Positions 1 through 61,680 of a stretch of DNA of 64,000 nucleotides are shown one piece after another. The stretch lies in assembly GCA_040006575.1 (NCBI GenBank), contig JBDTWS010000002.1:1380-65379 (forward strand). The letters are read 5' to 3'. The position numbers were made by a program, and so were the translations under genes. The DNA is from Betaproteobacteria bacterium. GTDB taxonomy: Bacteria; Pseudomonadota; Gammaproteobacteria; Burkholderiales; Usitatibacteraceae. The notes under the pieces are model-generated. The model was given only the letters and a program-made list of their open reading frames with translations, made no database searches and was not told where the DNA came from. Position 1 is the stretch's first letter. Every line of letters starts with the position of its first letter.

Positions 1-182
1 ACGGCGGGCCCGGATTCGCGCACGTGGCCGTAGGCTGTTTTGCGGCCTTCGCTAAATATGCCAAGCTCATTGAGCTTAAGAACAAAGGTTTGTGAGCCGC
101 TTGGCGCCGCCTCGCCGGATGCGCGCTGGTAAAATAGCCGATTAACGATTGATGCCGCCGAATGCGCGGCCCGGGATTTGTC

Positions 183-1253
183 ATGATCATCGTCACCGGC
201 GGCGCCGGATTTATCGGTTCTAATTTCATTCACGCCTGGCTGGCCGCAGGCCTGGGTCCAGTCGTCAACCTCGACAAGCTGACCTACGCGGGCAACCTCC
301 AGTCACTGGCGGATATCTCGCACCATCCCGACTATCGATTTGTCCACGCCGACATCGGTGATCGCACGCGCATTCACGCGCTGCTGCGGGAAGCGCGACC
401 GACCGCCATCCTCAATTTCGCTGCCGAAAGCCATGTGGATCGCTCAATTCACAGCGCCGGCGATTTCATCCAGACCAACATCGTCAGTACCTTCAACCTG
501 CTGGAGGAGGTGAGGGCGTATTGGGGAGAGCTTGCCGATAGCGAGAAGGCCGATTTTCGTTTCCTGCACGTGTCCACCGATGAGGTTTACGGCTCGCTGG
601 GTGCGGACGATGCGGCGTTCACGGAACAACACCGGTATGAGCCGAACAGCCCGTATTCAGCATCGAAGGCCGCGTCGGATCACCTGGTGCGCGCCTATCA
701 CCACACCTACCATTTGCCGGTGCTGACCACCAATTGTTCAAACAATTACGGGCCCTATCACTTCCCCGAAAAATTGATTCCGCTGGTGATCCTTAACGCG
801 CTGGCCGGCAAGCCGCTGCCGGTCTATGGCGACGGACAAAATGTACGCGACTGGCTGTATGTCAGCGATCATTGCGCGGCTATCCGCATGGTGCTGGCCG
901 GCGGAAAACCGGGTGAGACGTACAACGTGGGCGGGCGCAATGAGCGAACCAATCTTGAGGTGGTCAATGTGATTTGCACATTGCTCGATGAGCTGCAACC
1001 GCGTGTGGATGGCAAGCGTTATGCGGCGCAGATCACTTTCGTTGCCGATCGCCCGGGCCATGACCGCCGTTACGCGATCGACGCATCGCGCCTCGAGTCC
1101 GAGCTGGGCTGGCGCGCGCAGGAAAATTTCGAGAGCGGAATTCGCAAAACAGTCGAGTGGTACCTTGCCAACCCGGAATGGGTGCGGTCCGTGACGAGCG
1201 GCGATTACCGGCAGTGGATGCAGCAACAATATGGAACGAAGGCTGCGGCATGA
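183..1253 (+). CDS. rfbB: dTDP-glucose 4,6-dehydratase
   Basis: ORF 162..1253. The in-frame ATG at 183 gives [15 protein letters not shown] (Rossmann GxxGxxG). YSASKAASD supplies the SDR YxxxK motif. The ORF is RmlB-like along its whole length. Its stop overlaps the rfbA start (ATGA at 1250-1253). Confidence 0.95.
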
Positions 1254-2131
1254 AGCGCAAAGGAATCATCCTGGCTGGTGGCAGCGGCACGCGCCTGTAC
1301 CCGGTAACCCAAGTTGTTTCAAAACAACTGCTGCCGATTTACGACAAGCCGATGGTGTACTACCCGTTGTCCACCCTGATGCTCGCGGGCATACAGGACA
1401 TCCTGATCATCTCGACGCCGCACGATATGCCGCAATTCCAGGAATTGCTCGGTGATGGAAAGAAGTGGGGTCTTTCGCTTTCCTATGCGGTGCAGCCCTC
1501 GCCCGACGGACTCGCGCAGGCATTTCACATCGGCAAGGATTTTGTCGGCAACGCTGATTCAGCGCTGATACTGGGCGACAACATTTTCTATGGCCATGAC
1601 CTCTCCGTATCGCTGCAGCGTGCGCACGAAAAATCAACGGGCGCCACGGTGTTCGCCTATCCCGTCCATGATCCGGAACGCTATGGCGTCGCCGAATTCG
1701 ATGCCGCGGGCAAAGTCATTTCGCTGGAGGAAAAGCCGGCAAAGCCGAAATCGCGCTATGCGGTTACGGGCATTTATTTTTACGATAACCAGGTGTGTGA
1801 CCTCGCGCGTTCGTTGAAACCTTCCACGCGCGGCGAACTGGAAATCACCGACCTGAACCGTCTTTATCTCGAACAAGGTTCGCTGACCTGCGAGGTCATG
1901 GGACGCGGCATGGCGTGGCTGGATACCGGCACGCATGAGTCGCTGCTGGAAGCCTCGCAATACATCGCTACCATCGAGCGGCGCCAGGGCCTCAAGGTCG
2001 CGTGCCCCGAGGAAATCGCATTTCGCCAGGGTTGGATTTCAGCAGAGGACATCCAGGCGCTCGCCAAGCCCATGTTGAAAAACGGTTACGGGCAATACCT
2101 GATGCAGATGCTCGCTGAGCGCGTGTTCTAG
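1250..2131 (+). CDS. rfbA: glucose-1-phosphate thymidylyltransferase
   Basis: Internal ATG at 1250 of ORF 1157..2131 gives [18 protein letters not shown], the nucleotidyltransferase G-rich loop. Length (~293 aa) is typical of RmlA and the gene sits in an rfb operon. Confidence 0.95.
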
Positions 2132-2142
2132 GGTTACGTTGC

Positions 2143-2694
2143 ATGAATGTCATCGACACGGCGATCGCCGATGTAAAGATTCTTGAGCCCAAAGTGTTTG
2201 GCGATGAACGCGGTTTCTTTTTTGAAAGTTTCAACGAACAGAATTTTCGCAATGCAATCGGCACCGATGCTGTTTTTGTCCAGGACAATCATTCGAAGTC
2301 GGTCAAGGGCGTGTTGCGCGGCCTGCACTACCAGATCCAGCAGTCGCAGGGAAAATTGGTGAGGGTCGTCGCGGGCGAAGTGTTCGACGTGGCGGTGGAT
2401 ATTCGACGCAGTTCGCCCACATTTGGCCGGCATGTCGCCCTGCGCCTGTCGGCCGAAAACAAACGCATGCTCTGGGTTCCCGCCGGTTTTGCACACGGCT
2501 TCGTGGTGACGTCCGACAGCGCGGAATTCCTGTACAAAACCACGGACTACTACGCCCCGCAGCACGATCGCAGCCTGCTCTGGAACGACCCGGCGCTGGC
2601 CATCGACTGGCCGATCGCGGAAACAGGCACACCGCAACTCAAGCCCGCGGACATCAACGGCAAGCGGCTCGCCGAGGCTGAGCTGTTCGACTGA
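2143..2694 (+). CDS. rfbC: dTDP-4-dehydrorhamnose 3,5-epimerase
   Basis: 183 aa cupin with FGDERGFFFESF, RGLHYQ and GFAHGF motifs typical of RmlC. Confidence 0.95.
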   Translation: MNVIDTAIADVKILEPKVFGDERGFFFESFNEQNFRNAIGTDAVFVQDNHSKSVKGVLRGLHYQIQQSQGKLVRVVAGEVFDVAVDIRRSSPTFGRHVALRLSAENKRMLWVPAGFAHGFVVTSDSAEFLYKTTDYYAPQHDRSLLWNDPALAIDWPIAETGTPQLKPADINGKRLAEAELFD

Positions 2695-3614
2695 TGGGCA
2701 TTGCAGCAGACACGCCACGCATCTTGATCACGGGAGCCGATGGGCAGCTGGGTTGGGAGCTACAGCGTTCATTCGCATCGGAAGGCGAAATATTTGCCTT
2801 TGACCGTTCGGCGATGGACCTGTCATCACCCGACGCTATCCGTTCCCGTTGCCGTGAAATCCGGCCCACGCTGATCCTGAATGCGGGCGCATATACCGCC
2901 GTGGACAAGGCTGAGTCTGAGCCGGACATGGCCATGCGCATCAATGGTGAAGCGCCCGGAATACTTGCCGAAGAGGCGAACAAACTCAATGCCGTGCTGG
3001 TCCATTACTCAACCGATTATGTTTTCGACGGAACCGCAGGCTCGCCGTACCGGGAGACAGACACTACTGCACCGCAAAACGTTTACGGCCGAACCAAGCT
3101 CGCCGGTGAACAAGCCGTAAGCACAATGGCGAAGCGCTTTGCCACATTCCGCACGAGCTGGCTGTACGGAAACCGTCGTCACAATTTCATGCTCACCATG
3201 TTGCGTCTTGCGCGGGAGCGCGAAGAGCTGCGCGTGGTGGCCGATCAAACCGGTTCGCCAACCTGGGTGCGCGCTGTCGCCGAAGCGACACGAGAATGCG
3301 TGCAGTCAGGCGCGTTGCGCATTGAGCCGGGCATCTATCACCTCACTGCAAACGGCCAAACGACCTGGCACGGTTTTGCGACTGCGATCCTGGATGGGAC
3401 CGCCGGTGAGCCACGCCTCGCGCAGCGCGTGGTGGCCATCAACAGCGGTGAACTCGCGATGCCGGCCAAGCGACCGAGCTACTCGGTTTTGTCACTAAGC
3501 AAACTGGAACTTGCCCTGGGCCATGAAATGACTGACTGGCAAGAGCAACTGCGGCGGTGCATTGCGGAGAGAAAATCGATAGACTCCAGCACCGGGGCGG
3601 CTTCCGTGGCATAA
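2694..3614 (+). CDS. rfbD: dTDP-4-dehydrorhamnose reductase
   Basis: ILITGADGQLG Rossmann loop, STDYVFDG and YGRTKLAGE (YxxxK). The start overlaps the rfbC stop by 1 nt (TGATG). Confidence 0.9.
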   Translation: MGIAADTPRILITGADGQLGWELQRSFASEGEIFAFDRSAMDLSSPDAIRSRCREIRPTLILNAGAYTAVDKAESEPDMAMRINGEAPGILAEEANKLNAVLVHYSTDYVFDGTAGSPYRETDTTAPQNVYGRTKLAGEQAVSTMAKRFATFRTSWLYGNRRHNFMLTMLRLAREREELRVVADQTGSPTWVRAVAEATRECVQSGALRIEPGIYHLTANGQTTWHGFATAILDGTAGEPRLAQRVVAINSGELAMPAKRPSYSVLSLSKLELALGHEMTDWQEQLRRCIAERKSIDSSTGAASVA

Positions 3615-5646: not shown

Positions 5647-5660
5647 GCGCGGAACCCCTC

Positions 5661-6914: not shown

Positions 6915-6944
6915 TCGTTTCCTTTTTTTGCCGGAGTAATCGTC

Positions 6945-7379: not shown

Positions 7380-7391
7380 ATAGTCCTCTCG

Positions 7392-7862: not shown

Positions 7863-7883
7863 GGCGTCTCGGAGGCATTTCGC

Positions 7884-10095: not shown

Positions 10096-10113
10096 TCCCG
10101 CAGCCCATTTCCT

Positions 10114-12970: not shown

Positions 12971-13086
12971 TCCCGATAGTCGATGACTGATTGCATGAAG
13001 TGAAAGACAGAATCGCGGCCGCGTTTTAGGTTGGCAGAAGTCCACTTTATGAAATGAATGCAGTGAAACTTTTTTGAATTGAAAAC

Positions 13087-17723: not shown

Positions 17724-17864
17724 TCGTTTGAAGATGCAATCTGTATGCAAGAGTTTACATTCTTGGGTGGCCTCGCCTGCTAGCATCGGTTGCACTAATA
17801 AGAAAAAATATCTTCACTCTGCCGGGACCATTACGTGATTTATGTTGGACTTAAGAGGAACAAA

Positions 17865-26707: not shown

Positions 26708-26714
26708 TCCGCCC

Positions 26715-39552: not shown

Positions 39553-39667
39553 ACTGTTCCCAGCTGCCATCAACTTCCTGATCCCGCATCCAGCCGCAAA
39601 TTGCTACAGTCGCCGTTCCGCTTTCCCGTTATTCTCTCGCAGGCTCAATTTCCCCCCGGAGTTTTCC

Positions 39668-49667: not shown

Positions 49668-51179
49668 GTGAAGCATGATTATTTGAAGCGCATCCTGAGC
49701 GCTCACGTGTATGACGTGGCCATCGAGAGTCCGCTGGGACGCAGCGCCGGCATGTCCGAATTGCTGGGCAATGAAATCCTGCTGAAACGGGAAGACCTGC
49801 AGCCGGTGTTCTCATTCAAGCTGCGTGGCGCGTATAACAAGATGGCGCATTTGACGGCCGCCGAATTGAAGCGCGGCGTGATTTGCGCCTCGGCCGGCAA
49901 TCATGCCCAGGGCGTCGCCCTGGCCGCGCAAAAGCTGGGCTGCAAGGCCACCGTCGTCATGCCTGTCACCACACCGGCCATCAAGGTGCTGGCAGTGCAG
50001 CGGCGTGGCGCGGAAGTATTGCTGCATGGCGACAGTTACCACGAGGCAGGCCTGTACGCGAAAACGTTGTCAGCCAGGAAAAAGCTCACCTACGTTCATC
50101 CTTACGATGATCCGCTGGTCATCGCGGGACAGGGCACCATCGGCATGGAGATCCTGCGGCAGTTCCAGCATCCCATCGACGCGATTTTTGTGCCGATTGG
50201 CGGAGGTGGATTGATTGCCGGGATTGCGGCCTATGTGAAGGCGCTCTCGCCCAAAACAAAAATCATCGGCGTCGAGCCGGAAGATTCGAACGCAATGTAT
50301 CAATCGCTGAAAGCTAACAAACGCGTCACGCTTTCGCATGTAAACCTGTTCGCCGACGGTGTTGCCGTCAAGCAGGTCGGCGTTGAAACGTTCAGGCTGG
50401 CGAAGCAGCTGGTGGATGAGGTGGTGCTGGTTGATACCGATGAAATATGCGCGGCCATCAAGGATATTTACCAGGACACACGCTCGATCATGGAGCCTTC
50501 AGGCGCGCTGGCGCTGGCAGGGATCAAGCGTTATGTCGAGCGCGAAAAATGCAAGGGCAAGACGTTCGTCGCCATCTGCTGCGGTGCGAACATGAATTTT
50601 GATCGCCTGCGGTTCGTCGCCGAACGCGCACAGGTGGGTGAGCACCACGAAGCCCTGCTGGCGGCCACTGTGCCCGAAACGCGCGGTAGTTTCCGTAAAT
50701 TTTGCGAGCTGCTGGGGCCGCGCAGCGTGACGGAATTCAATTACCGAATTGCTGATGCAAAACAGGCGCATCTTTTCGTCGGGGTGTCGGTGAGTGGGCG
50801 GGACGAAGCGAAGAAACTGGTCACGCATTTCAGCCGCCGCGGCTTCAAGACAGTGGACCTCACCGACAATGAAATGGCCAAGTTGCACGTGCGTCATCTC
50901 GTCGGCGGCCGTTCTCCCCTCGCGAAGGATGAACGCATCTACCGCTTCGAATTCCCCGAGCGTCCCGGCGCACTGATGAATTTCCTGACCAGCATGAGTC
51001 CCAACTGGAACATCACCTTGTTCCACTATCGTAATCATGGTGCGGACGTCGGCAGGATCCTGGTTGGTCTGCAGGTGCCGAAGAATGAGCGCGCTGGTTT
51101 TGGTAGGTTCCTGAAGACGTTGGGGTACCAATACGTCGATGAAACGGATAATCCTGCGTACCAGCTTTTCCTGGGCTGA
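49668..51179 (+). CDS. ilvA: biosynthetic threonine ammonia-lyase (threonine dehydratase)
   Basis: GTG start. PLP site LQPVFSFKLRGAYN. SAGNHAQGVA. Two C-terminal ACT-like regulatory repeats. 503 aa. Confidence 0.92.
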   Translation: MKHDYLKRILSAHVYDVAIESPLGRSAGMSELLGNEILLKREDLQPVFSFKLRGAYNKMAHLTAAELKRGVICASAGNHAQGVALAAQKLGCKATVVMPVTTPAIKVLAVQRRGAEVLLHGDSYHEAGLYAKTLSARKKLTYVHPYDDPLVIAGQGTIGMEILRQFQHPIDAIFVPIGGGGLIAGIAAYVKALSPKTKIIGVEPEDSNAMYQSLKANKRVTLSHVNLFADGVAVKQVGVETFRLAKQLVDEVVLVDTDEICAAIKDIYQDTRSIMEPSGALALAGIKRYVEREKCKGKTFVAICCGANMNFDRLRFVAERAQVGEHHEALLAATVPETRGSFRKFCELLGPRSVTEFNYRIADAKQAHLFVGVSVSGRDEAKKLVTHFSRRGFKTVDLTDNEMAKLHVRHLVGGRSPLAKDERIYRFEFPERPGALMNFLTSMSPNWNITLFHYRNHGADVGRILVGLQVPKNERAGFGRFLKTLGYQYVDETDNPAYQLFLG

Positions 51180-51227
51180 TGCCGCAGGAAATTTCGCGCC
51201 TGCGTTTGGCCGTCAAGGAAAGTCGAT

Positions 51228-54227
51228 TTGGAGTTGCGTTTGGAGCCGAAAAGAAATGAGGCCTGCCCTTGTGGCAGCGGAAAGCGGTACAAGCATTGTT
51301 GTGGACTTGAAGCGTCCACTGCATCTGTGCTTGTGCAAAATCCCGCGCCGGCCGCCGCGCCGCATAGCGCCCCGGCTGGCGATGCACCGACGGCCGTCGA
51401 AAAAGACCAGGCTATTGCCCTGTTCAACGCCGGGCGCCATGCAGAATTGGAGAGCCGGGCGCGCGCCCTGGTCGAGCGATACCCGGTGTCCGGCTGGGCC
51501 TGGAAAGTGCTGGGGATTTCGCTTCAGCTGCAGGGCAAGGATACGTTGGCCGCGTTGCAGAAAACCGTCGAATTCCTGCCGGACGATGCCGGCGCGCATG
51601 CCATGTTGGGAGCTACCCTTGTCGACCGGGGTCAATTCGAGAGTGCTGCGACAAGCTGCCGCCGCGCGCTGACGCTTGATCCGGATTACGCAGAGGCACA
51701 CGGTAACCTGGGCGTTGCGTTGCACGGCATGGGGCAATTCGAAAAGGCCGTGGCAAGCTGTCGTCGCGCACTGGCGATCGATCCCGATTTTGTCCAGGCA
51801 CATGGCGCGATGGGGGCGTCCCTCCAATCCCTGGGGCGGTTCGAAGACGCAGTCGCCAGCTATCGCCGGGCGGTGGAGCTGAACGCGGATTTCGCCCCCA
51901 CGCATTGCAACCTGGGTGCGGGCCTTATCGACTTGAAGCAGTTCGAAGAGGCGGCGGCGAGTTGCCGTCGGGCACTGGCAATTGATCCGGCGTATATCGA
52001 AGCGCACTGTAACCTCGGCATCGCGTTGCAAGGACTGGGGCAATTTGATGCCGCTGTGGAAAGCTGTCGCCGGGCGCTGGCCATCAATCCCGATTATGCC
52101 GAGGCGCACAACAGCCTGGCCACTGCCCTGCAAGCACTCGGCCATCTCGATGAAGCGCTGGTGAGCTATCAGCGGGCGTTGGTCCTCAGGCCCCAGTACG
52201 CTGAGGCGCATAACAACATGGGCAACGTGTTGCGAGATCTCCGGCAAATGACTGAAGCGGTAACGAGCTATCGGCACGCGCTGGCAATCAATCCTCATTT
52301 TGCCGAGGCGCACAATAATCTCGGTGTTGCCCTCCAAGTCCTCGAGCAACTCGATGAGTCGGCGGCCTGCTTCAGGCGGGCCCTGGCCATTAAACCCCGT
52401 TACGCCGAGGCGTACAGCAACCTCGGCAGTACGCTGCAAGACCTCGGGCTATTGGATGAGGCCGTGGCATGTTGCCGCCAGGCGCTTGCGATCAATCCTG
52501 GGCTCGCCGGCGCGCACAATAACCTGGGCAATGCGCTGAGGGACCAGCGGCAATTTGACGCCGCGATCGAAAGCTATCGCAAGGCATTGGCCATTAATCC
52601 GGATTTTGCCGAGGCGCATTACAACCTGGGCATTGCGCTGCGAGACTGCGAGCAATTTGATGACGCGGTGGCAAGCCTTCGCCGGGCCCTTGAGATCAAT
52701 CCCGATTTCGGGGAAGCGCACAGCAGCCTGGGATCGATATACGGAAGCATGGGCAAGATGAGTGAGGCCCGTGCCAGTTATGCAAAAGCACAGGCATTGG
52801 GCTTTGAAAGCGCCTGGGTACTGGATGCGCTGATGTTGCCCCCCATCATGGGCACAAAGGCGGAAATGCTGGAAAGCCGTGCGGCATTTGAACGCAATCT
52901 GGAACAGCTGATGAGGAAGGCTGTGCCCCAGCGCAACCCGTTTCGGAACGTAGCGCTTACCAACTTTTACCTGGCCTACCATGCCTTGAATGACCGGGAT
53001 CTGCAAATCGAGGTAGCGAAATACTATGAGCAGGCATGCCCGTCGTTGCTATATACCGCACCCCACTGTCTTCGGCCGAAGGTCCGTGCCGGGCAAAAGA
53101 TCCGTGTCGGCTTCTTTTCCAAATATTTGTATGAACATTCCGTTTCGCTTTGCTATAGCGAAATTGTCGAGTCACTTTCGTCGAACGATCAATTTGACGT
53201 GACGTTGATTTCCGATCGTCCTGCCGATGAAAAAACCTATTCGAAATTCGCCGGCAGGCGCGTGCAGGTGCCGCACAATATTGATCGCGCCAGGGAGCTG
53301 ATTGCCGCGCAGGAGCTGGACATCCTCGTATACCTTGATATCGGCATGGAACCCCTGAGTTATTTCCTGGCGTTCGCGAGATTGGCGCGCGTGCAGTGCG
53401 TTCTCAGTGGCCATCCGGTGACGACGGGCATCACCAACGTGGACTACTTCCTGTCGAATGACCCGATGGAACCGCCCGGCGCGGAGGCCCATTACAGCGA
53501 GAAATTGGGCAAGTTGCCGAAGCCGCTGTTTTATCTTGCGCGACCGGCCATACCTGCCAGGCTCAAGACGCGGACAGAACTCGGATTGCCTGAGGGACAG
53601 CACCTTTATATGTGCCCGATGCGGCTGCAGAAAATGCATCCGGATTTCGATGAGGCGATCACACGGATTTTGCAGATCGATGACACGGGCGTCGTCGTGT
53701 TGTTTGAAGACGTTGAACTGAAATTTGGCAAGAAGCTGCTTCTCCAGCGCTTTGAAAAGACCGTACCCGCAGATGTTCGCGAGCGCGTCGTATTCCTGCC
53801 ATGGTTAAAAAACCAAACCGATTTCATGAGCGCCATTGCGGCAGCCGACGTCATCCTGGATCCCTTCCACTTCGGTATCGGCTCAACGGCGATGACCACC
53901 ATCGCAATAGGTACGCCCATGGTGACGAAGGCCGGAGAATTCATGCGCGGGCGGGTGGGCATGTGGCTGTGCGAATTGATGGAGCTGCCTGAATGCATTA
54001 CCCACGATACCGAGGCCTACGCACAAAAGGCCGTGCAGCTTGCCGGCAATCCGGCGCTGCGGGAAAGCGTCGTCGCGAAGATGCGCAAGAACAGTCATCG
54101 CTTGTATGAAAACCTTCAACCTGTCGATGATTTTGCGAACTTCCTGCGTTCGGTGGCAGGGGAATCGACTAATCAGGCAGCGCATCACGTTACGCCACAT
54201 TCATCTTTGAGTCGCGCGCAGCATTGA
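51228..54227 (+). CDS. SEC-C zinc motif + ~14 TPR + GT41 (OGT/SPINDLY-like) glycosyltransferase
   Basis: N-terminal ACPCGSGKRYKHCCG (SecA C-terminal type SEC-C motif, nt 51261-51305). A TPR array. The C-terminal domain is paralogous to the GT41 domain of ORF 26715 (RVQCVLSGHPVTTGITNVDYFLSNDPMEPPGAEAHYSEKL). TTG start, exact codon uncertain. Confidence 0.8.
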   Translation: MELRLEPKRNEACPCGSGKRYKHCCGLEASTASVLVQNPAPAAAPHSAPAGDAPTAVEKDQAIALFNAGRHAELESRARALVERYPVSGWAWKVLGISLQLQGKDTLAALQKTVEFLPDDAGAHAMLGATLVDRGQFESAATSCRRALTLDPDYAEAHGNLGVALHGMGQFEKAVASCRRALAIDPDFVQAHGAMGASLQSLGRFEDAVASYRRAVELNADFAPTHCNLGAGLIDLKQFEEAAASCRRALAIDPAYIEAHCNLGIALQGLGQFDAAVESCRRALAINPDYAEAHNSLATALQALGHLDEALVSYQRALVLRPQYAEAHNNMGNVLRDLRQMTEAVTSYRHALAINPHFAEAHNNLGVALQVLEQLDESAACFRRALAIKPRYAEAYSNLGSTLQDLGLLDEAVACCRQALAINPGLAGAHNNLGNALRDQRQFDAAIESYRKALAINPDFAEAHYNLGIALRDCEQFDDAVASLRRALEINPDFGEAHSSLGSIYGSMGKMSEARASYAKAQALGFESAWVLDALMLPPIMGTKAEMLESRAAFERNLEQLMRKAVPQRNPFRNVALTNFYLAYHALNDRDLQIEVAKYYEQACPSLLYTAPHCLRPKVRAGQKIRVGFFSKYLYEHSVSLCYSEIVESLSSNDQFDVTLISDRPADEKTYSKFAGRRVQVPHNIDRARELIAAQELDILVYLDIGMEPLSYFLAFARLARVQCVLSGHPVTTGITNVDYFLSNDPMEPPGAEAHYSEKLGKLPKPLFYLARPAIPARLKTRTELGLPEGQHLYMCPMRLQKMHPDFDEAITRILQIDDTGVVVLFEDVELKFGKKLLLQRFEKTVPADVRERVVFLPWLKNQTDFMSAIAAADVILDPFHFGIGSTAMTTIAIGTPMVTKAGEFMRGRVGMWLCELMELPECITHDTEAYAQKAVQLAGNPALRESVVAKMRKNSHRLYENLQPVDDFANFLRSVAGESTNQAAHHVTPHSSLSRAQH
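51594..52817 (+). repeat. 12 uninterrupted tandem 34-aa (102-bp) TPR units
   Basis: Units begin AH(x)NLG and end ...CRRALAI(D/N)P(D)(F/Y)AE. The periodicity is visible at DNA level (recurrent gcgctggc.atc.atcc.ga.t). Two looser TPRs lie upstream, from about 51408. Confidence 0.85.
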
Positions 54228-54306
54228 TCCACTAATTGGAGTGAACGCCGTTTGAAGAACCGTGCCCGCAGGAAAACAGAAAACAGACAGGCCCACCAGC
54301 AAAGCC

Positions 54307-55428
54307 ATGACCGCACCCCGCGATAAGCCACCTATCTATGTGACACAGCCGCAACTTCCCCCGCTGGAAGAATTTGTCCCCTATCTGGCGAAAATCTGGG
54401 ACAGCAAGATCCTGACCAACTGCGGTCCGTTTCATGAGCAGCTGGAGACGGCGTTGTGCGAATACCTGGGGGTCAAGCAGATCTCCCTGTTTACCAATGG
54501 CACGATTGCGCTGGTCACTGCACTGCAAGCCTTGCGGATCACCGGCGAAGTCATTACTACGCCGTATTCGTTTGTAGCGACGGCGCATTCGCTGCTGTGG
54601 AATGGCATCAAGCCGGTGTTTGTGGACATTGATCCCATCACACTTAATCTCGATCCGGACAAGATCGAGGCCGCCATTACACCGCAAACCACCGCCATCA
54701 TGCCGGTGCATTGCTATGGGAAACCCTGCGATACGTCACGTATTCAAGCCATTGCCGACAAGCACGGGCTAAAAGTGATTTACGATGCGGCGCATGCTTT
54801 TGGCGTTAAGGACTCTGGTGGAAGTGTGCTCAATGACGGCGACCTTTCCGTGCTGAGTTTTCACGCGACCAAGCCGTTCAACACGTTTGAGGGCGGAGCC
54901 ATCGTATCCCCGGATGCTGAAACCAAACAGCATATCGACCACCTGAAAAACTTCGGATTCGTCGATGAAGTGACGGTCGTGGACCCCGGTATCAATGGCA
55001 AGATGAGTGAGATCAATGCCGCGTTCGGTCTGTTGCAATTGAAGGGTATCGATGCCGCCCTTGAAGCGCGCAAAGTCATTGACGCGCGTTATCGGCAACA
55101 CTTTGTCGCGGCAAAGGGCATTCAATGCCTCGCCGAGCCCGCAGGTATCCAGGCCAACTACGCTTACTTTCCGATCCTGGTGCAGCCGGCCCATCCGCTC
55201 AGCCGCGATGGCTTGTATGAAAAATTGCGCGCCCACGGAATTTATTCGCGGCGTTATTTCTATCCCTTGATCAGCGATTTTCCGATGTATAGCGCGATGC
55301 CGTCGGCAGCACATGCCAACTTGCCCGTGGCAAGGAAGGTGGCGAGTGAGGTGATTTGCCTGCCGATATATCCGGCGCTGTCGATTGAACAGGTCGACTT
55401 CATTGCCGAACTCATCGTTTCGCCATGA
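54307..55428 (+). CDS. DegT/DnrJ/EryC1/StrS-family NDP-sugar aminotransferase
   Basis: PLP-dependent fold. LSFHATKPF contains the Schiff-base Lys. DAAHAFG. WecE/FdtB-like overall. The ATG at 54307 is preferred over the ORF-track start at 54262. Confidence 0.88.
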   Translation: MTAPRDKPPIYVTQPQLPPLEEFVPYLAKIWDSKILTNCGPFHEQLETALCEYLGVKQISLFTNGTIALVTALQALRITGEVITTPYSFVATAHSLLWNGIKPVFVDIDPITLNLDPDKIEAAITPQTTAIMPVHCYGKPCDTSRIQAIADKHGLKVIYDAAHAFGVKDSGGSVLNDGDLSVLSFHATKPFNTFEGGAIVSPDAETKQHIDHLKNFGFVDEVTVVDPGINGKMSEINAAFGLLQLKGIDAALEARKVIDARYRQHFVAAKGIQCLAEPAGIQANYAYFPILVQPAHPLSRDGLYEKLRAHGIYSRRYFYPLISDFPMYSAMPSAAHANLPVARKVASEVICLPIYPALSIEQVDFIAELIVSP

Positions 55429-56186
55429 AACGTGTTGCCATCATGCAGCCGTATTTCTTCCCGTATATCGGCTATTTCCAGCTGATCGCCGCAGTGGATC
55501 TGTTCATCGTGTACGACAATATCAAGTACACCAAGAAGGGCTGGATTAATCGCAACCGCATGCTGCAGGGCGGCAGGGATGTGATGTTCTCGCTGCCGCT
55601 GAAAAGCGATTCGGACTCCCTGGATGTAGGCGAACGGGAGCTGGCGAAGGATTTCAAACGTGACAAATTGTTGAACCAGATTACCGAGGCGTACCGGCAC
55701 GCACCCTATTTTTCCGAAACGTTTTTCCTGGTTGAGGAAATCGTTAAGCATGACGACGCGAACCTTTTTGGGTATTTGCATCATTCCATTGCCAGGACCT
55801 GTGAACACCTGGGAGTCTTGACGGAGATAAAAATTTCTTCCGGTATCGCCATCGACCATGCGCTGAAGAACCAGGAAAAGGTGCTCGCCCTGTGCGCGGC
55901 TGTCGGCGCGACTGACTATGTCAATGCTATCGGTGGCATGGAACTCTATGCGGATGACGCCTTCCAGAAAAGGGGAATCGAGTTGAAATTCCTGCGTTCG
56001 CACCCGTTCGAGTATGTGCAGCTCGGCGACACGTTTGTTCCGTGGTTGTCTATCATCGACGTGATGATGTTCAACCCGGTTGAGGCCATCAAAACTTACC
56101 TCGGCTCGGGTTACGAATTGATTGCGGGCGGACAGATGCCCGCTAAGATGCCGGATTCACAATTGATGTCGGGTTTGCACCTGTAA
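55425..56186 (+). CDS. WbqC-family protein
   Basis: MKRVAIMQPYFFPYIGYFQLIAAVDLFIVYDNIKYTKKGWINRN is the characteristic WbqC-like N-terminus. ATGA overlap with the aminotransferase gene. Confidence 0.75.
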   Translation: MKRVAIMQPYFFPYIGYFQLIAAVDLFIVYDNIKYTKKGWINRNRMLQGGRDVMFSLPLKSDSDSLDVGERELAKDFKRDKLLNQITEAYRHAPYFSETFFLVEEIVKHDDANLFGYLHHSIARTCEHLGVLTEIKISSGIAIDHALKNQEKVLALCAAVGATDYVNAIGGMELYADDAFQKRGIELKFLRSHPFEYVQLGDTFVPWLSIIDVMMFNPVEAIKTYLGSGYELIAGGQMPAKMPDSQLMSGLHL

Positions 56187-56927
56187 ATGATTTTTCAGGA
56201 GAACGCTGTGGGCAATAAGGAAATTGAACACCTGGAATCAATTAGTGCCTTTTATGAAAAAGGCGACTACATGGATGAGCTGATGATTGATCGGGAAATC
56301 GACATAATCAAGCGATATGCAACCGCCGGCAAAAGCGCGCTGGAAGTGGGGTGTGGCAGCGGTTCCTCCACCGAAAAGCTGTGCGGGCTGTTCGAAGATA
56401 TTGAGGTCATCGAGCCGTCAAGGAAGAACATTGCCTTGCTGAAGGGGAGAGTGCCGGGCGTCGTTTGCCATGAGGCGCTGCTGGAGGATTTTTCGCCTTC
56501 CCGGAAATTCGACTTCATTTTTTTCCTGAACGTCATTGAGCACGTGGAGGATCCGGTTGCATCCCTCAAGATCCTCGCCGGCCTGGTCAAGCACGAGGGG
56601 CTGATCTTTATTTCGGGTCCAAATTGCATGTCCCTGAATCGACGTGCTGGGTACAAGATGGGTCTGTTGGAAGACTACGAAAAAATGGCGCCAAAGGACA
56701 TTGAGGTCGGCCATCGCCGGCTTTATACGGTGGCGATGTTGCAGGATCATTGCGATCAGGCGGGATTGAGGGTGCTCGACATGAAGGGGATGTACCTGAA
56801 ACCGCTTTCGGAAAAGCAGATGATTGCCCTGGGTGATGAAGCCGTGCGAGCCTTTTATGCGATCGGGGAGGACATCCCGGAATATTGCGCAAGCCTCCTC
56901 GCGGTAGCGACCCGTAAATACTATTGA
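56187..56927 (+). CDS. class I SAM-dependent methyltransferase
   Basis: SAM motif I ALEVGCGSGSST. FFLNVIEHVEDP. Paralogous to ORF 59521..60273. Confidence 0.8.
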   Translation: MIFQENAVGNKEIEHLESISAFYEKGDYMDELMIDREIDIIKRYATAGKSALEVGCGSGSSTEKLCGLFEDIEVIEPSRKNIALLKGRVPGVVCHEALLEDFSPSRKFDFIFFLNVIEHVEDPVASLKILAGLVKHEGLIFISGPNCMSLNRRAGYKMGLLEDYEKMAPKDIEVGHRRLYTVAMLQDHCDQAGLRVLDMKGMYLKPLSEKQMIALGDEAVRAFYAIGEDIPEYCASLLAVATRKYY

Positions 56928-56990
56928 TTGCCCGGAGGGTTTCCAGAGCCAAGTATTGGCGGGCGGCAATTTCAAGAATGGTGGGTAAAC

Positions 56991-57953
56991 GTGTTTCGAT
57001 GGAAAAAACAGGGGCTGGTCTTCAAGCCCCAGGCAATTGAAGGCAGGCCTTGGCTAAGGGAGTTTGCGCAAGCGCCTTCGGTATTGATCTTCGATGATTT
57101 TGTGCGGGTCTATTTTTCCTGCAGGCCGGCGCCGGATGCGCGCGGGCAATATACAAGTTATTCCGCCTACGTCGATTTGAACCGGCGCAATCTGTTTGAG
57201 ATCGTAAATATTGCCAAAGCGCCCATCCTGGAATTGGGCGAACTGGGAACGTTCGACGAGTTTGGAACCTACCCGGTATCGGTGATCAGGAATGGCGTCG
57301 ATGTACTCGCCTACTATGGCGGCTGGACAAGGTGCGAATCGATTCCCTTTACCGTATCCATCGGCGCTGCGGTCAGTCGCGACAATGGTGAGAGCTTCAC
57401 GAAGCTCGGGCGCGGGCCGCTTTTGACGTGCAACATCGATGATCCGTTTGTACTCAGCGGACCCAAAATCAGGCGATTCAATGATCAGTGGTGCCTGTGG
57501 TATGTCGCCGGGACGGCGTGGCTGGAAAATGACGGCAAGCCGGAAGCGGTCTACAAGATTCGCATGGCAACTTCAGACGACGGCCTTAACTGGGCAAGAA
57601 GCGGCAAAAATCTGGTTGAGAACAAATTGGAGGAAAACGAATGCCAGGCGAGTCCGGACGTCTTCTTCCACAACAATAAATACCACATGTTTTTTTGCTA
57701 CAAGTACTGCCTCGATTTCAGGAATAACGACCGGGGCTATCGTATTGGCTATGCCGTTTCCGACGACATGGTGAACTGGATTCGGGACGACACAAAAGCG
57801 GGTATCGATATCTCGCCGGAGGGATGGGATGATCAATCCATCTCCTATCCACATGTGTTTGCGCTGGATGGTGACATTTACATGTTCTATTTAGGAAATG
57901 CGGTTGGCCGATATGGATTTGGGCTCGCGCAACTGGAAGGTCATCTTTCATGA
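56991..57953 (+). CDS. uncharacterised protein, predicted beta-propeller glycosidase/phosphorylase-like fold (paralog 1)
   Basis: The GTG at 56991 aligns its N-terminus (FRWKKQGLVF) with the paralog's MKWKKLGKIF. There are repeated W/D/G-rich blade-like segments (WCLWYVAG, YHMFFCY, IYMFYLGN). The fold call rests on pattern only. Confidence 0.5.
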   Translation: MFRWKKQGLVFKPQAIEGRPWLREFAQAPSVLIFDDFVRVYFSCRPAPDARGQYTSYSAYVDLNRRNLFEIVNIAKAPILELGELGTFDEFGTYPVSVIRNGVDVLAYYGGWTRCESIPFTVSIGAAVSRDNGESFTKLGRGPLLTCNIDDPFVLSGPKIRRFNDQWCLWYVAGTAWLENDGKPEAVYKIRMATSDDGLNWARSGKNLVENKLEENECQASPDVFFHNNKYHMFFCYKYCLDFRNNDRGYRIGYAVSDDMVNWIRDDTKAGIDISPEGWDDQSISYPHVFALDGDIYMFYLGNAVGRYGFGLAQLEGHLS

Positions 57954-57972
57954 TCCTGGTCCCGACACCGCT

Positions 57973-58926
57973 ATGAAATGGAAGAAACTGGGAAAGATAT
58001 TCGACCCGACGGAACATCGCCTGTCGAACAACTGCAAGGAATTCGCCCAATCACCCCAGGCATTGGTATTTGACGACTTCGTCCGTATCTATTTCTCAAC
58101 GCGGGAAAGGGATGCGATGGGGAAATACCTGAGTCATATTTCATTTGTCGATATGGACAAAGACTTCAGGACAGTGATCAGGGTATCGACGGAGACGGTC
58201 ATCAGCCTGGGTGCGTTGGGCAGCTTTGACGAACACGGCATATTTCCGATGAACGTCTGCAAGGTCAATGACAAGGTACTTGCCTACACCACGGGCTGGA
58301 ATAGAAGGGCATCGGTGTCCACCGATGCCGCAATCGGCTTGGCCATCAGCGATGACGACGGCGTGACGTTTCGCAAGGTCGGCAAAGGGCCGGTATTGAC
58401 GCCTTCACTGAATGAACCTTTCCTGGTCGGCGACGCGTTCGTTGCCGTATACGGCGGCACGTATCACATGTGGTATGTCTTCGGCACGAAGTGGGCGCGC
58501 CAGTCACCGGAGGGCGTACCCGAGAGAGTCTATAAAATTGCCCACGCCACTTCCGGCGATGGCATCTCCTGGATCAAGGAGGGCCGGCTGTTGATCACCG
58601 ATAAACTGGATGCCGACGAGTGCCAGGCGCTTCCCACGGTGACGTTTGTAGATGGCCGTTATCACATGTTTTTTTGTTATCGGCATGCGACAGACTTCAG
58701 AAAAAACCGGGACAGGGGGTATCGAATCGGCTACGCCGTTTCCGAAGACCTGGTGAGCTGGACTCGGGACGATGACAACGTCGGGATCGATGTGACGGAC
58801 GGCAGTTGGGATTCGGACATGTTGTGCTACCCGCATGTTTTTCAAATGGATGGCGGCGTGTATTTGCTGTACAACGGAAACGAGTTTGGCCGCCATGGTT
58901 TCGGCCTGGCGAAGCTGGAAAATTAG
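57973..58926 (+). CDS. uncharacterised protein, predicted beta-propeller glycosidase/phosphorylase-like fold (paralog 2)
   Basis: ATG at 57973. Collinear with the preceding gene over its whole length, for example EFAQSPQALVFDDFVRIYFS versus EFAQAPSVLIFDDFVRVYFS, and RGYRIGYAVSEDLVSWTRDD versus RGYRIGYAVSDDMVNWIRDD. Confidence 0.5.
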   Translation: MKWKKLGKIFDPTEHRLSNNCKEFAQSPQALVFDDFVRIYFSTRERDAMGKYLSHISFVDMDKDFRTVIRVSTETVISLGALGSFDEHGIFPMNVCKVNDKVLAYTTGWNRRASVSTDAAIGLAISDDDGVTFRKVGKGPVLTPSLNEPFLVGDAFVAVYGGTYHMWYVFGTKWARQSPEGVPERVYKIAHATSGDGISWIKEGRLLITDKLDADECQALPTVTFVDGRYHMFFCYRHATDFRKNRDRGYRIGYAVSEDLVSWTRDDDNVGIDVTDGSWDSDMLCYPHVFQMDGGVYLLYNGNEFGRHGFGLAKLEN

Positions 58927-58954
58927 CCGCGCGCATATATCGGGAGACAGCCAA

Positions 58955-59515
58955 ATGAATATCAGGGGAAAAGTGCTGACGTTAAGGGCCATTGAGGAAC
59001 GTGACCTTGCGTTGTTGCACAAATGGGCAAACGATCCCGTGACCCAGGACGGAATTGGTGAATTGCACTTTCCGAGCTCCATGGATTTCCATAGTGCGTG
59101 GTTCCAGAATTTGAAACAGGACCGGCTGAACCAGCGGTTTGTGGTCGACGTGCCGGAGGTGGGGATCATCGGCATTTCCAGTATCGTCAATATTGATTGG
59201 CGCAATAGCCATGCCTGGCATGGCTTGGTGCTGGGTGAGGCCCAGCATCGAGGCAAAGGCTATGGCGTAGACGCGATCATGGCGACGATGCGATACGCCT
59301 TTGAAGAAATGAATCTTGAGCGGCTTGACGGGTCGATGATCGAATATAACGAACAGTCGATCGCTACCTACTGCGGAAAAAAACTGGGTTGGAAAGAGGA
59401 GGGGCGAAAGAAGAATTACTTCTTCAGGAAGGGCCGGTACTGGGACCAGGTCATTGTGGGTATTACCAAACAGGATTACCTCAATTTGGTAAAAGAAACG
59501 AAGTACTGGGCATAG
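58955..59515 (+). CDS. GNAT-family N-acetyltransferase (RimJ/RimL/PseH-like)
   Basis: ATG at 58955. LRAIEERDLALLHKWANDP; HRGKGYGVDAIMATMRYAFEEMNLERL (acetyl-CoA motif A). Confidence 0.8.
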   Translation: MNIRGKVLTLRAIEERDLALLHKWANDPVTQDGIGELHFPSSMDFHSAWFQNLKQDRLNQRFVVDVPEVGIIGISSIVNIDWRNSHAWHGLVLGEAQHRGKGYGVDAIMATMRYAFEEMNLERLDGSMIEYNEQSIATYCGKKLGWKEEGRKKNYFFRKGRYWDQVIVGITKQDYLNLVKETKYWA

Positions 59516-59520
59516 CGACG

Positions 59521-60273
59521 ATGGAGACGATGAAATCACCACCCGACAATCATCAGGAGTCGTCGGCCGCCGCCCAACCAAGGTATGCATACGCCTTTGA
59601 TATCGACGTGATGCACCCTTTCATGCTGCGATCGTTCGAGCCGTTCTTTAACAAGGGCAGCCTGCTTGAACTTGGCAGTCACAAGGGCGATTTCACCCGG
59701 CGATTTCTGTCCCGTTTCGATGATGTGACCTGCGTCGAAGCGTCGGAACCCGCACTGGCAGAGGCGAAGCAGGCGCTGGGAAACAAAGTGACGTTGATCC
59801 ATTCGACGTTTGAGACGGTCACGCTTCCCCGACGCTACGACAACATTATCCTGACCCACGTATTGGAACACCTGGACGACCCGGTGCTGGTGCTGAAGCG
59901 CATAAACGATGAGTGGCTGACGGACAACGGCAGGCTCTTCCTGGTTTGTCCGAATGCAAACGCGCCATCGCGGCAGATCGCCGTGAAAATGGGACTGATA
60001 TCCCACAATGAAGCGGTCACGCCGGCGGAGGCCGAACATGGTCACCACGTCACCTACACATCGCACACGCTTGAACGCGACGCCGTTGCCGCAGGATTGC
60101 GTGTAGTCCATCGATCAGGAGTCTTTTTCAAGGCATTGGCAAATTTCCAATGGGATCGCCTGCTCGCCACGGATATTATTTCAAAAGAGTATCTGGACGG
60201 TTGCTACCAACTTGGGCTGGCGTATCCCGACTTGTGCGCCAGCATTTTCCTGGTATGCGAGAAGGGCGAATGA
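59521..60273 (+). CDS. class I SAM-dependent methyltransferase
   Basis: ATG at 59521. LLELGSHKGDFT (degenerate motif I). ILTHVLEHLDDP. Paralog of 56187..56927. Confidence 0.8.
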   Translation: METMKSPPDNHQESSAAAQPRYAYAFDIDVMHPFMLRSFEPFFNKGSLLELGSHKGDFTRRFLSRFDDVTCVEASEPALAEAKQALGNKVTLIHSTFETVTLPRRYDNIILTHVLEHLDDPVLVLKRINDEWLTDNGRLFLVCPNANAPSRQIAVKMGLISHNEAVTPAEAEHGHHVTYTSHTLERDAVAAGLRVVHRSGVFFKALANFQWDRLLATDIISKEYLDGCYQLGLAYPDLCASIFLVCEKGE

Positions 60274-61413: not shown

Positions 61414-61680
61414 GGGCCGAATGGGCGCCGCGTCGTCGTATCGTGTAGCCCGCGAGACCTGACTTTTAGTGTCCCGGGTATATTTCGCCATCGACCAATC
61501 GGCGAATAACAGCCAACTCATTCCGCGTTATGCATTTTATTTCCGGTAAGTCATGCGTAAGCGCGTGATCGTTACGCTGACGACCAGTTAGCCCACCGCC
61601 AAGGCCGCAACATGAAGGGTAGCGGCCGAAAGTGCCGGCAGCTCTGGCGCAGGCCAGTGCTGAAAACCCGAACAGAATTG

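Follow-up and report, generated by a model that had tools for sequence, protein, structure and literature searches.

Superhelices of tetratricopeptide repeats (TPRs) followed by a GT-B catalytic domain of family GT41 are the common plan of the OGT/SPINDLY enzymes, i.e. human OGT (13.5 repeats), XcOGT (2JLB/2VSN) and Arabidopsis SPY, which use UDP-GlcNAc or GDP-fucose as donors. Bacteria, too, have OGT-like enzymes in abundance, very few of which have been characterised. A cyanobacterial one, the cytoplasmic TPR-GT41 enzyme Ogt/OgtA, modifies the subunit of an exported filament and is needed for glycosylation of PilA (PMC9306852); it uses UDP-GlcNAc and has no dedicated sugar operon. HMW1C and ApNGT share the GT41 fold without TPRs, are N-linking and use UDP-hexose, and HMW1C reportedly glycosylates the adhesin HMW1 in the cytoplasm before its Sec-dependent export (PMC3012730). 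In Caulobacter FlmG, a soluble enzyme with sugar-biosynthesis genes alongside, the TPR domain binds flagellins and the GT-B domain glycosylates them (PMC7591256), with pseudaminic acid as the donor.

The export machinery has its own small recognition module, the metal-binding domain (MBD or SEC-C motif) at the C-terminus of SecA, which is held on a flexible linker and binds SecB and ribosomes. The non-SecA protein YecA/AscA has a near-identical MBD, on which its binding to SecB (KD about 150 nM) and to 70S ribosomes depends (bioRxiv 10.1101/2020.07.21.215244), and many methionine aminopeptidases also carry a SecA-like MBD (10.1101/613315). A SEC-C motif and TPRs occur together in mycobacterial Rv0613c/MSMEG_1285, which binds HBHA, a surface protein that depends on it for exposure on the cell surface (PMC6032435), but Rv0613c/MSMEG_1285 has no glycosyltransferase domain and its remainder is unrelated to the protein described below.

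Here we analyse a 64-kb stretch of betaproteobacterial DNA (the window) with a gene that joins the two, i.e. a SecA-like MBD and an OGT-like glycosyltransferase. HMW1C/ApNGT and the cyanobacterial enzyme have no MBD, none has been described for FlmG, and compared with OGT/SPINDLY the window protein adds one at its N-terminus on a disordered tether. The preliminary description knew of no SEC-C–GT41 system, and our literature search likewise found no paper describing one.

Reading frame and domain architecture

The gene (51228..54227, forward strand) encodes 999 amino acids from a TTG start. TTG is the only type of start codon upstream of the SEC-C motif (at 51228, 51234 and 51240), and the deposited NCBI product P0001 (874 aa) begins at Met126 and leaves the motif out. 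That the MBD is an untranslated relic and Met126 the true start nevertheless seems hardly credible to us. A Shine-Dalgarno-like AAGGA (51215..51219, forward strand) lies 8 nt before the TTG, the in-frame stop of ilvA is 16 codons 5' of it with no further start codon in between, residues 1–124 are 69–72% identical to those of the homologs P0121 and P0122, and the SEC-C motif differs from that of locus L001 by four synonymous changes and one conservative change. Because of this spacing, stop position, N-terminal identity and synonymous bias, the long form including the MBD is supported. Moreover, many homologs have an ATG a few codons 5' of the motif, the metal ligands are invariant, and a start at Met126 would remove about 2.5 TPRs that are modelled with high confidence. 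Automated annotation can thus strip a protein of an informative domain. The 999-residue protein has no signal peptide, and none of its segments reaches transmembrane-like hydrophobicity (maximum KD19 1.43).

The MBD comprises residues 9–26 (51252..51305, forward strand; PF02810 scores 34.4 bits in the Pfam search, where 20.4 bits is the cut-off). Residues 12–26 read exactly ACPCGSGKRYKHCCG, as the preliminary description had it when it recognized a SEC-C motif there. In the PDB, the top match of the N-terminus is chain I of 1OZB (E=1.6e-7), the zinc peptide of Haemophilus influenzae SecA in complex with SecB (RNEACPCGSGKRYKHCCG), and 16 of 18 residues are alike. By likeness to SecA, C13, C15, C24 and C25 are the predicted metal ligands, and Ser17 and Tyr21 are the counterparts of the conserved SecA Ser and Tyr, i.e. 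the ligand set CxCx8C[CH] as well as the conserved Ser and aromatic residue are present; the R-N, G-S-G-K and Y-K flanks of the CxCx8CC site are essentially identical to those of SecA and YecA/AscA. In 26 homologs with 34–83% identity, N10, C13, C15, G16, S17, K22, C24 and C25 are invariant, while position 21 is Phe or His in some of them. These comparisons confirm a genuine SecA-type MBD, rather than a chance motif or a degenerate Cys cluster. It differs from the C-terminal one of SecA/YecA in being located at the extreme N-terminus, with the flexible linker on its other side, and in being attached to a glycosyltransferase.

A Pro/Ala-rich and apparently flexible linker follows (residues 27–55; 51306..51392, forward strand), with pLDDT below 50 at residues 26–50. 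Homologs have linkers of 12–41 residues (median 25) without sequence conservation. For the next part of the protein (residues 56–525; 51393..52802, forward strand), Pfam finds 11 TPR_1 stretches, and the full-length AlphaFold model shows 28 helices across residues 56–523 with pLDDT mostly above 90. This corresponds to 14 TPRs, the number claimed in the preliminary description. Twelve of the 14 are in perfect 34-residue register, most have the OGT-type Asn of the xNLG motif, and the best natural PDB match of the region is the TPR region of human OGT (E=7e-74).

The catalytic domain (residues 526–984; 52803..54179, forward strand) had been called GT41-like, which several comparisons bear out. 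Glyco_transf_41 (PF13844; gathering cut-off 25 bits) matches residues 779–955 with 49 bits, though only over profile positions 356–527, i.e. the C-lobe. Alignment with XcOGT gives E=4e-15, with SPINDLY, human OGT and HMW1C-like NGTs also matching; the catalytic domain is 17–22% identical to those of the OGT/SPINDLY enzymes. The best 50 Foldseek matches of the domain are all GT41 (XcOGT, E=4.5e-19, TMq 0.67–0.70; ApNGT (8J30), TMq 0.72), and the full-length model (pLDDT 88.4) has full-length SPY (E=9e-37) and human OGT (E=1e-36) as its top fold matches. Thus, OGT/SPINDLY is closest in sequence and fold, whereas the NCBIfam NGTferase model reaches only 59.6 bits against an equivalog cut-off of 1000. 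His637 and Lys802 align with His218 and Lys388 of XcOGT and are invariant in the 26 homologs. The segment aligned with the H-T-T sugar-nucleotide motif of OGT, however, reads G-I-G-S-T instead of the A-H-T-T of XcOGT, and therefore donor and chemistry may differ from those of OGT. The subfamily is large, with 5,148 representatives at 50% identity and E of 1e-30 or better.

In betaproteobacteria, the fusion of SEC-C motif and GT41 domain is real and recurrent, as judged from sequence comparison across loci: 14 of 31 close loci keep the MBD. The preliminary description had made conservation of the Cys motif and the taxonomic spread of the fusion matters for checking. The ligands do not vary in the 26 homologs compared above, and the entire domain is missing from 17 of the 31 close loci and from every one of the 50 remote loci. 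Since so many close orthologs do without it, the MBD is dispensable for the family and its role, whatever that is, not essential. Other GT41 subfamilies carry it too, as do TPR-sulfotransferases.

The operon and its predicted sugar

The gene had been proposed to head an operon for an amino sugar, and this holds: conserved genes follow it on the same strand across loci. In the window these encode a DegT/DesI-like PLP aminotransferase (54262..55428; TIGR04427, 290 bits, which is under the equivalog cut-off), a WbqC-family protein (55425..56186; PF08889, 222 bits), a SAM-dependent methyltransferase (56187..56927), two paralogous beta-propeller proteins with weak matches to GH43/GH32/GH130-like families (56928–57953 and 57898–58926), a GNAT N-acetyltransferase with a weak PseH-like match (58835..59515) and two further methyltransferases (59389–60273 and, Methyltransf_24/TylF-like, 60274–61413). 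DegT adjoins the glycosyltransferase gene in 27 loci (66–87% identity), WbqC is linked to it in 23 and the beta-propeller pair in 20. The N-acyl enzymes differ by locus, with GNAT in the window, a formyltransferase in L018 and an SDR plus an AMP-ligase in L004, L026 and L033.

The DegT/DesI-like enzyme is predicted to aminate a dTDP-4-keto-6-deoxyhexose at C4. Its substrate dTDP-4-keto-6-deoxyglucose is probably supplied by rmlA and rmlB, which together with rmlC and rmlD lie in the same window (rmlB, rmlA, rmlC, rmlD; 162..3614, forward strand), although we infer their link to the operon. The donor would then carry an N-acylated, methylated 4-amino-4,6-dideoxyhexose, i.e. a dTDP-type amino-deoxyhexose in place of the UDP-GlcNAc or GDP-fucose of OGT/SPINDLY. 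The operon contains no Pse or Leg synthase, and its PseC and PseH matches are under their cut-offs.

Genomic neighbourhoods and possible acceptors

In three lineages, the orthologous operon is found within a fliE-fliC-fliD locus. In L018 the order is GT-DegT-WbqC-...-fliE-fliC-fliD, in L004/L015 the operon ends at fliE, and in L012 TPR-GT genes separate fliE from fliD-flaG-fliC; the genes of L018 and L004/L015 bear the MBD. The GT domains of these flagellin-locus orthologs are 54–60% identical to that of the window gene. By tblastn, none of fliC, fliD and fliE is present in the 64-kb window.

Our preferred explanation, which in our judgement has an even chance of being right, is that the product of the window gene is a soluble O-glycosyltransferase for proteins that works in the cytoplasm, is akin to OGT, SPINDLY and FlmG, modifies an exported surface protein and has the MBD as an accessory tether. 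The 14-TPR superhelix would capture the acceptor protein, and the GT41 domain would transfer the sugar made by the downstream operon, all prior to export. Because the orthologous operon abuts fliE-fliC-fliD in other loci, flagellin ranks first among the possible acceptors, and a T2SS-secreted protein is the main alternative; as the window has no flagellar gene, this assignment is by orthology only. The likeness to FlmG is one of architecture and, in the orthologs, of locus; the window differs by its lack of flagellar genes and its predicted donor. Burkholderia cenocepacia FlmQ is reportedly a predicted flagellin glycosyltransferase, and the flagellin glycan of this species is also a 4-amino-4,6-dideoxyhexose derivative.

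A second type of neighbourhood, found in at least four lineages, is a T2SS. Within 10 kb of the MBD-bearing orthologs in L002, L003, L021 and L022 there are a GspD secretin and a Ser/Thr/Ala-rich protein with a signal peptide, and in Rhodoferax (L003, L022) an MBD-GT41 island is located beside the same type of T2SS at the place that cargo, Wzm/Wzt and TPR-GT41 genes occupy in the window. In a neighbour-joining tree, flagellar and T2SS contexts are interspersed, and the window gene has its nearest informative relative in L002, which adjoins a T2SS. These loci speak for the idea of the preliminary description that the enzyme could use its MBD to dock on SecB, SecA or the ribosome, so that Sec preproteins would be glycosylated in the cytoplasm before export. 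In the form weighed here, the glycosylation would be O-linked, and the preproteins could be T2SS cargo, pseudopilins or, for instance, an S-layer-like protein. The match to the SecA peptide crystallized with SecB, the affinity of the YecA/AscA MBD for SecB, the HMW1C/HMW1 precedent and the modification of a pilin by cyanobacterial Ogt are in line with it. By analogy with YecA/AscA the idea is plausible, yet it is weakened by the MBD-bearing orthologs L018 and L004, which sit with the same operon in flagellin loci, because flagellin is not a Sec substrate. Furthermore, the T2SS-adjacent relative L034 and possibly also L010 have no MBD, and the T2SS of the window is about 36 kb away from the gene, behind LPS-core and housekeeping genes, and has MBD-less TPR-GT41 genes of its own, which adjoin Wzm/Wzt. 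The secreted proteins next to the T2SS show no mutual homology and thus provide no conserved candidate substrate. All five T2SS-linked loci have the MBD (hypergeometric p about 0.01), but this association is not significant because they collapse to about three lineages. Finally, SEC-C motifs can serve roles unrelated to Sec, as in YchJ (PMC13377102). On balance, we regard glycosylation ahead of Sec export by this route as unlikely.

The third neighbourhood concerns polysaccharides. In L021, Wzm/Wzt directly follow the GT, DegT and WbqC genes; two TPR-GT41 genes come after Wzm/Wzt in a cluster conserved in the window, L085 and L087; and GT4, GT2, GT9, MsbA-like and Wzy_C/WaaL-like genes are found near the window locus. 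As 4-amino-4,6-dideoxyhexoses are common O-antigen sugars, the enzyme might not be a protein glycosyltransferase at all but add its sugar to a lipid-linked polysaccharide in an ABC-transporter pathway, for example to cap an O-antigen or S-layer-anchoring glycan. The TPRs would then serve as a scaffold or ruler, and the MBD, which is basic, would anchor the enzyme to a membrane or to a partner. Several points tell against this, however. The TPR array is of the OGT type with its Asn ladder, protein glycosylation accounts better for the flagellin-locus orthologs, and to our knowledge all characterised GT41 members act on protein, as classified in CAZy. In addition, most operon loci lack an ABC-2 transporter at a distance of up to 10 kb; tblastn gave wzt-like matches in three loci, with 40% identity only in L021, and a wzm match in one. 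A glycan acceptor thus retains a small chance owing to Wzm/Wzt beside the L021 operon and beside the other TPR-GT41 genes of the window, but seems improbable.

Possible roles of the metal-binding domain

Within the explanation that we prefer, the MBD on its disordered tether of 12–41 residues would be an accessory of particular lineages. Its most plausible function would be to dock the enzyme on a partner in the cell, more likely the ribosome than SecB, allowing the enzyme to meet its substrate early; the presence of the MBD in flagellin-locus orthologs favours a partner that is not specific to Sec. Whatever the acceptor, the MBD could also be regulatory, i.e. a metal- or redox-sensitive switch, a dimerization module or an autoinhibitory element that tunes glycosyltransferase activity. 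The C-terminal SEC-C motif of YchJ acts as a redox switch, with a Cys-Cys pair that reportedly senses ROS and drives dimerization (PMC13377102), and C24 and C25 of the window protein form such a pair at the fourth ligand position; in vivo, iron is bound by SecA-like MBDs in addition to zinc, and SecA is autoinhibited by its tail (10.1101/613315). Against this, the non-ligand residues R9, N10, G16, S17, K19 and K22 are as conserved as in SecA, which suggests a conserved binding surface, i.e. more than a metal site alone. We regard a regulatory role as improbable.

A broader proposal takes into account that other GT41 subfamilies and TPR-sulfotransferases have the MBD as well. It could be a portable module that docks these enzymes on the ribosome or SecB, with flagellin, pilins, T2SS cargo and other export substrates being O-glycosylated co-translationally or while still unfolded. 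We consider this unlikely, but if true, it would give bacteria an equivalent of the ribosome-associated modification of nascent chains, and cytoplasmic glycosylation would be coupled to secretion in a new way. Irrespective of the target protein and MBD function, which we infer, a genuine SecA-type MBD on OGT-like enzymes provides a testable handle on how cytoplasmic glycosyltransferases find export-bound proteins and on what SecA-like MBDs do outside SecA. Cultured carriers of the gene are Roseateles toxinivorans DSM 16998 and Albitalea terrae S-16.

The N-terminal metal-binding domain

The focal open reading frame (51228..54227, forward strand) encodes 999 amino acids, and the SEC-C sequence ascribed to its residues 12-26 in the preliminary description, ACPCGSGKRYKHCCG, was recovered exactly. 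The corresponding NCBI record (P0001, 874 amino acids, titled 'MAG: tetratricopeptide repeat protein [Betaproteobacteria bacterium]'), which is 100% identical, starts at Met126 and does not contain the motif; this start drops 51228-51602, i.e. the SecA-like metal-binding domain (MBD) and about 2.5 tetratricopeptide repeats (TPRs). We take the long form, with its TTG start and the MBD, to be correct because several observations converge on it. The only possible starts 5' of the motif are TTG codons at 51228, 51234 and 51240, with the ilvA stop in frame 16 codons 5' of the first of these, no further start codon in between and a Shine-Dalgarno sequence (AAGGA) 8 nt 5' of 51228. Residues 1-124 share 69-72% identity with the homologous proteins P0121 and P0122, many homologs have an ATG start a few codons 5' of the same motif, and the motif codons differ from those of the related locus L001 by four synonymous changes and a single conservative one. 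Finally, the TPRs that a start at Met126 would remove are of high confidence in the AlphaFold2 model. That the long form is an artefact is thus highly improbable. A promoter and terminator scan of 50900-62000 gave a site count no higher than in shuffled sequence.

The MBD (residues 9-26) is recognised by Pfam SEC-C (PF02810), scoring 34.4 bits where 20.4 are required. Among PDB entries, the N-terminus is most similar to 1OZB chain I (matched against RNEACPCGSGKRYKHCCG, E=1.6e-7), the zinc-binding peptide of H. influenzae SecA in a crystal with SecB; the C-terminal motif of YchJ ranks second, ahead of NMR structures of the E. coli SecA MBD. Across 26 aligned MBD-bearing homologs with 34-83% identity, the cysteines C13, C15, C24 and C25, on whose conservation in orthologs the preliminary description had staked its proposal, are invariant; so are N10, G16, S17 and K22, with R9 and K19 nearly so. 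From the 1OZB match and the invariant residues other than the ligands, the motif is, judged by its sequence, a SecA-type MBD with a conserved serine and basic surface residues, and more than a cysteine cluster. It is followed in the homologs by a non-conserved linker of 12-41 residues (median 25) rich in P, A, G, S, T and Q, and residues 26-50 of the focal protein are of low confidence and apparently disordered in the AlphaFold2 model. The tail of SecA likewise consists of a flexible linker and an MBD, which the focal protein, however, carries at its opposite end.

The glycosyltransferase and its sugar operon

Besides SEC-C, Pfam finds many TPR matches in the focal protein as well as Glyco_transf_41 (PF13844; residues 779-955), the latter at 49 bits with a cut-off of 25. 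The AlphaFold2 model of the whole protein, computed with 26 homologs (mean pLDDT 88.4), places 28 helices, corresponding to 14 TPRs, in residues 56-523, followed by a two-lobe Rossmann-type domain and an apparently disordered, low-confidence end (residues 985-999); the best matches of this model are full-length SPY and human OGT (E about 1e-36). Twelve of the TPRs are in exact 34-residue register, most with Asn at the xNLG position, and the best natural match of the array is the TPR domain of human OGT (E=7e-74), with SPINDLY next. For the C-terminal domain, a match to XcOGT spans both lobes (E=4e-15), and further matches are SPINDLY, human OGT, Thermobaculum OGT and HMW1C-like NGTs; the top 50 Foldseek matches of a model of the catalytic domain only (pLDDT 71.8) are all GT41 structures. 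His637 and Lys802, which align with His218 and Lys388 of XcOGT, are invariant in the 26-homolog alignment. Profile, predicted fold and key residues together support membership in GT41. The H-T-T segment of OGT reads G-S-T in the alignment of the focal protein with XcOGT, and the donor may be a nucleotide sugar other than UDP-GlcNAc. Neither a signal peptide nor a hydrophobic segment was found in the protein (maximum KD19 1.43).

Eight tightly packed genes on the same strand follow the focal gene: a DegT/DesI-like aminotransferase, WbqC, a methyltransferase, two paralogous beta-propeller proteins, a GNAT and two further methyltransferases. Since the rmlB, rmlA, rmlC and rmlD genes that open the window can supply dTDP-4-keto-6-deoxyglucose, the product of these operon enzymes is most likely an N-acetylated, methylated dTDP-4-amino-4,6-dideoxyhexose. 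Next to related glycosyltransferase genes, DegT is conserved in 27 loci, WbqC in 23, the propeller pair in 20 and a TylF-like methyltransferase in 14; the N-acyl enzymes vary, with a formyltransferase in L018 and a hexapeptide transferase, an SDR and an AMP-ligase in L004, L026, L031 and L033. Clustering of all neighbouring open reading frames from 31 loci found only sugar-tailoring enzymes to be conserved, and no acceptor protein. The propeller pair of the window (56928-58926), which adjoins DegT and WbqC in those 20 loci, shows weak GH43-related, GH32N and GH130-like matches; a literature search for 'WbqC' found no account of its function.

Distribution of the fusion and its possible acceptor

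How widely the fusion occurs, which the preliminary description had left to a survey, can now be stated. The MBD is found at the N-terminus of 21 of the 120 best full-length homologs, two of which are MBD-TPR-sulfotransferases (P0060 and P0092) and two tandem doubles (P0052 and P0111), in which an MBD opens each TPR-GT41 unit; these doubles, of the canonical MBD-GT41 type, are located among housekeeping genes. A profile search with the GT domain reached 31,317 cluster representatives (50% identity) at E <= 0.001 and 5,148 at <= 1e-30, and the MBD starts 19 of its best 150 matches. With one genome scanned for each species, 239 relatives emerged, and 80 loci were fetched: 14 of the 31 distinct close loci (GT-domain identity of at least about 42%) have the MBD, all labelled Betaproteobacteria or Burkholderiales and including the isolates Albitalea terrae S-16 and Roseateles toxinivorans DSM 16998 as well as a frameshifted copy (L005), whereas it occurs in none of 50 more distant loci from Alpha-, Gamma- and Deltaproteobacteria, Nitrospirota, Planctomycetota and Cyanobacteria. 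The MBD is also patchy on a neighbour-joining (NJ) tree of the GT domain. Given this distribution, it is a recurrent, lineage-restricted accessory outside the core of the family.

The closest relative from a genome, L005 (705-3501; 77% GT-domain identity), encodes the MBD in a reading frame other than that of the rest of the gene. Comparison with P0122 attributes its apparent absence to a frameshift, and L005, rejected as a true MBD-less locus, is a pseudogene with a frameshift or else reflects an error of assembly. In L007, L021, L033 and L088, neighbouring genes encode additional MBD-TPR-GT41 proteins of other GT41 subfamilies; those at L007 11527-13392, L021 6932-8743 (reverse strand) and L088 18141-20120 are canonical GT41 paralogs encoded side by side. 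At L004, a dense toxin-antitoxin array (800-7700; five BrnT/BrnA, MazE/PemK, HicB and HigB) lies directly 5' of the MBD-GT41 gene.

Two kinds of neighbourhood are found repeatedly around these genes. The first is flagellar. In L018 (Rhodoferax), the MBD-bearing glycosyltransferase gene is followed by DegT, WbqC, a formyltransferase, two propeller genes, two methyltransferases and then fliE, fliC and fliD; L004/L015 have the same operon with fliE as the last gene at the contig end, and in L012 (Sideroxydans, no MBD) TPR-GT genes are located between fliE and fliD-flaG-fliC; flagellin glycosylation islands classically occupy such a position. In the second, GspD of a type II secretion system (T2SS) is encoded no more than 10 kb away in L002, L003/L023, L021 and L022, each of which has the MBD, and the secretin gene is followed by one for a signal-peptide protein rich in Ser, Thr and Ala or for a BNR-like lipoprotein; L021 has, in addition, genes for Wzm/Wzt and for sulfation directly 3'. 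In L034, which lacks the MBD, GspE, GspG and such a Ser/Thr/Ala-rich or BNR-like protein are encoded 5' of two tandem glycosyltransferases. The ffh gene (SRP54; L034 7641-9032) found directly 5' of this tandem, and a few kb from the glycosyltransferase gene in L006, L008 and L024, is probably there by coincidence.

Flagellar and T2SS-linked loci do not form separate clades, being interspersed on the NJ tree, which accordingly assigns no acceptor to the window gene. All five T2SS-linked loci bear the MBD, yet that the domain tracks this context was rejected as unproven, since these loci cluster in the phylogeny and a T2SS-linked relative without the MBD exists. Among the secreted proteins encoded beside the T2SS in the window, L002, L021, L003 and L022, only the L003/L022 pair showed homology, and these proteins therefore offer no conserved candidate substrate. 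As a rough judgement, flagellin is a serious candidate for the acceptor in the window, with a little under an even chance; a T2SS-related or other Sec substrate is doubtful, and a glycan is quite unlikely, as is something else altogether. A cytoplasmic protein O-glycosyltransferase of the OGT/FlmG kind, which would use the sugar of its own operon, is the reading favoured by the GT41 fold and residues, by TPRs of the OGT type, by the close linkage of the operon and by the orthologs at flagellin loci. In FlmG, it is the TPR domain that binds flagellin (PMC7591256).

What the MBD may contribute can be approached from its counterparts. YecA/AscA binds SecB (KD about 150 nM) and 70S ribosomes through a nearly identical MBD (10.1101/2020.07.21.215244), many methionine aminopeptidases bear a SecA-like MBD (10.1101/613315), and in YchJ the SEC-C motif can act as a redox or dimerisation switch (PMC13377102). 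The preliminary description had proposed docking on SecB, SecA or the ribosome, with glycosylation of preproteins before Sec export; because flagellin loci are among those with MBD-bearing orthologs, the ribosome or another general partner would be a better fit than SecB or SecA specifically. The protein itself belongs to a known kind, the GT41 TPR glycosyltransferases, of which the addition of SEC-C is a variant, and public Pfam annotations already pair PF02810 with PF13844 on such proteins. A literature search on SEC-C with TPR or glycosyltransferase found no paper on this architecture or its function, in line with the preliminary description, which was not aware of a described SEC-C-GT41 system. 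Closest is a mycobacterial SEC-C and TPR protein required for surface exposure of HBHA (PMC6032435). The finding would gain in interest if the MBD turned out to link glycosylation with translation or with export.

Secretion and surface-glycan genes in the window

Just 3' of the operon, a gene for a secreted subtilisin-like S8 protease (61681-64000; signal peptide, D/H/S triad) starts and then exits the window; it is not conserved beside the operon in L001, and an Rfam scan of 61300-64000, a stretch that is the start of this gene, found no match. Upstream, the focal gene is preceded by housekeeping genes (suhB-like, rsmE-like, argA-like, phoU, rpiA and ilvA) and, between these and a series of LPS-type genes (GT4, epimerase, GT2, FkbM, MsbA-like, GT9, Wzy_C, GT2), by the gene for a large tricorn-like S41 protease with PD40 beta-propellers, PDZ and Peptidase_S41 domains (39515-43129).

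A complete T2SS is encoded at 3871-15282. Its ATPase GspE (3871-5646) has an N-terminal MshEN-type c-di-GMP-binding domain (NF053729, residues 22-80), which suggests c-di-GMP control of this T2SS. Two Ser/Thr-rich proteins with signal peptides follow (16023-17666 and 17835-19526), and then a PpiC isomerase, Wzm/Wzt and two MBD-less TPR-GT41 proteins (22658-28916). The first of the Ser/Thr-rich proteins (547 amino acids, 20% Ser + Thr) is secreted and encoded directly 3' of gspD in every case examined; it has at least 3,978 homologs, and those listed are all named 'hypothetical protein' and are all devoid of Pfam domains. The whole order, i.e. the T2SS from gspE to gspD, a signal-peptide protein of 510-547 amino acids without a Pfam domain, an He_PIG protein, PpiC, Wzm/Wzt and two MBD-less TPR-GT41 proteins, is shared by the window (3871-28916) with two other genomes (L085 1-21533 and L087 1-21626), and this supra-operon may constitute a dedicated T2SS for glycosylated or S-layer-like cargo together with its glycan.
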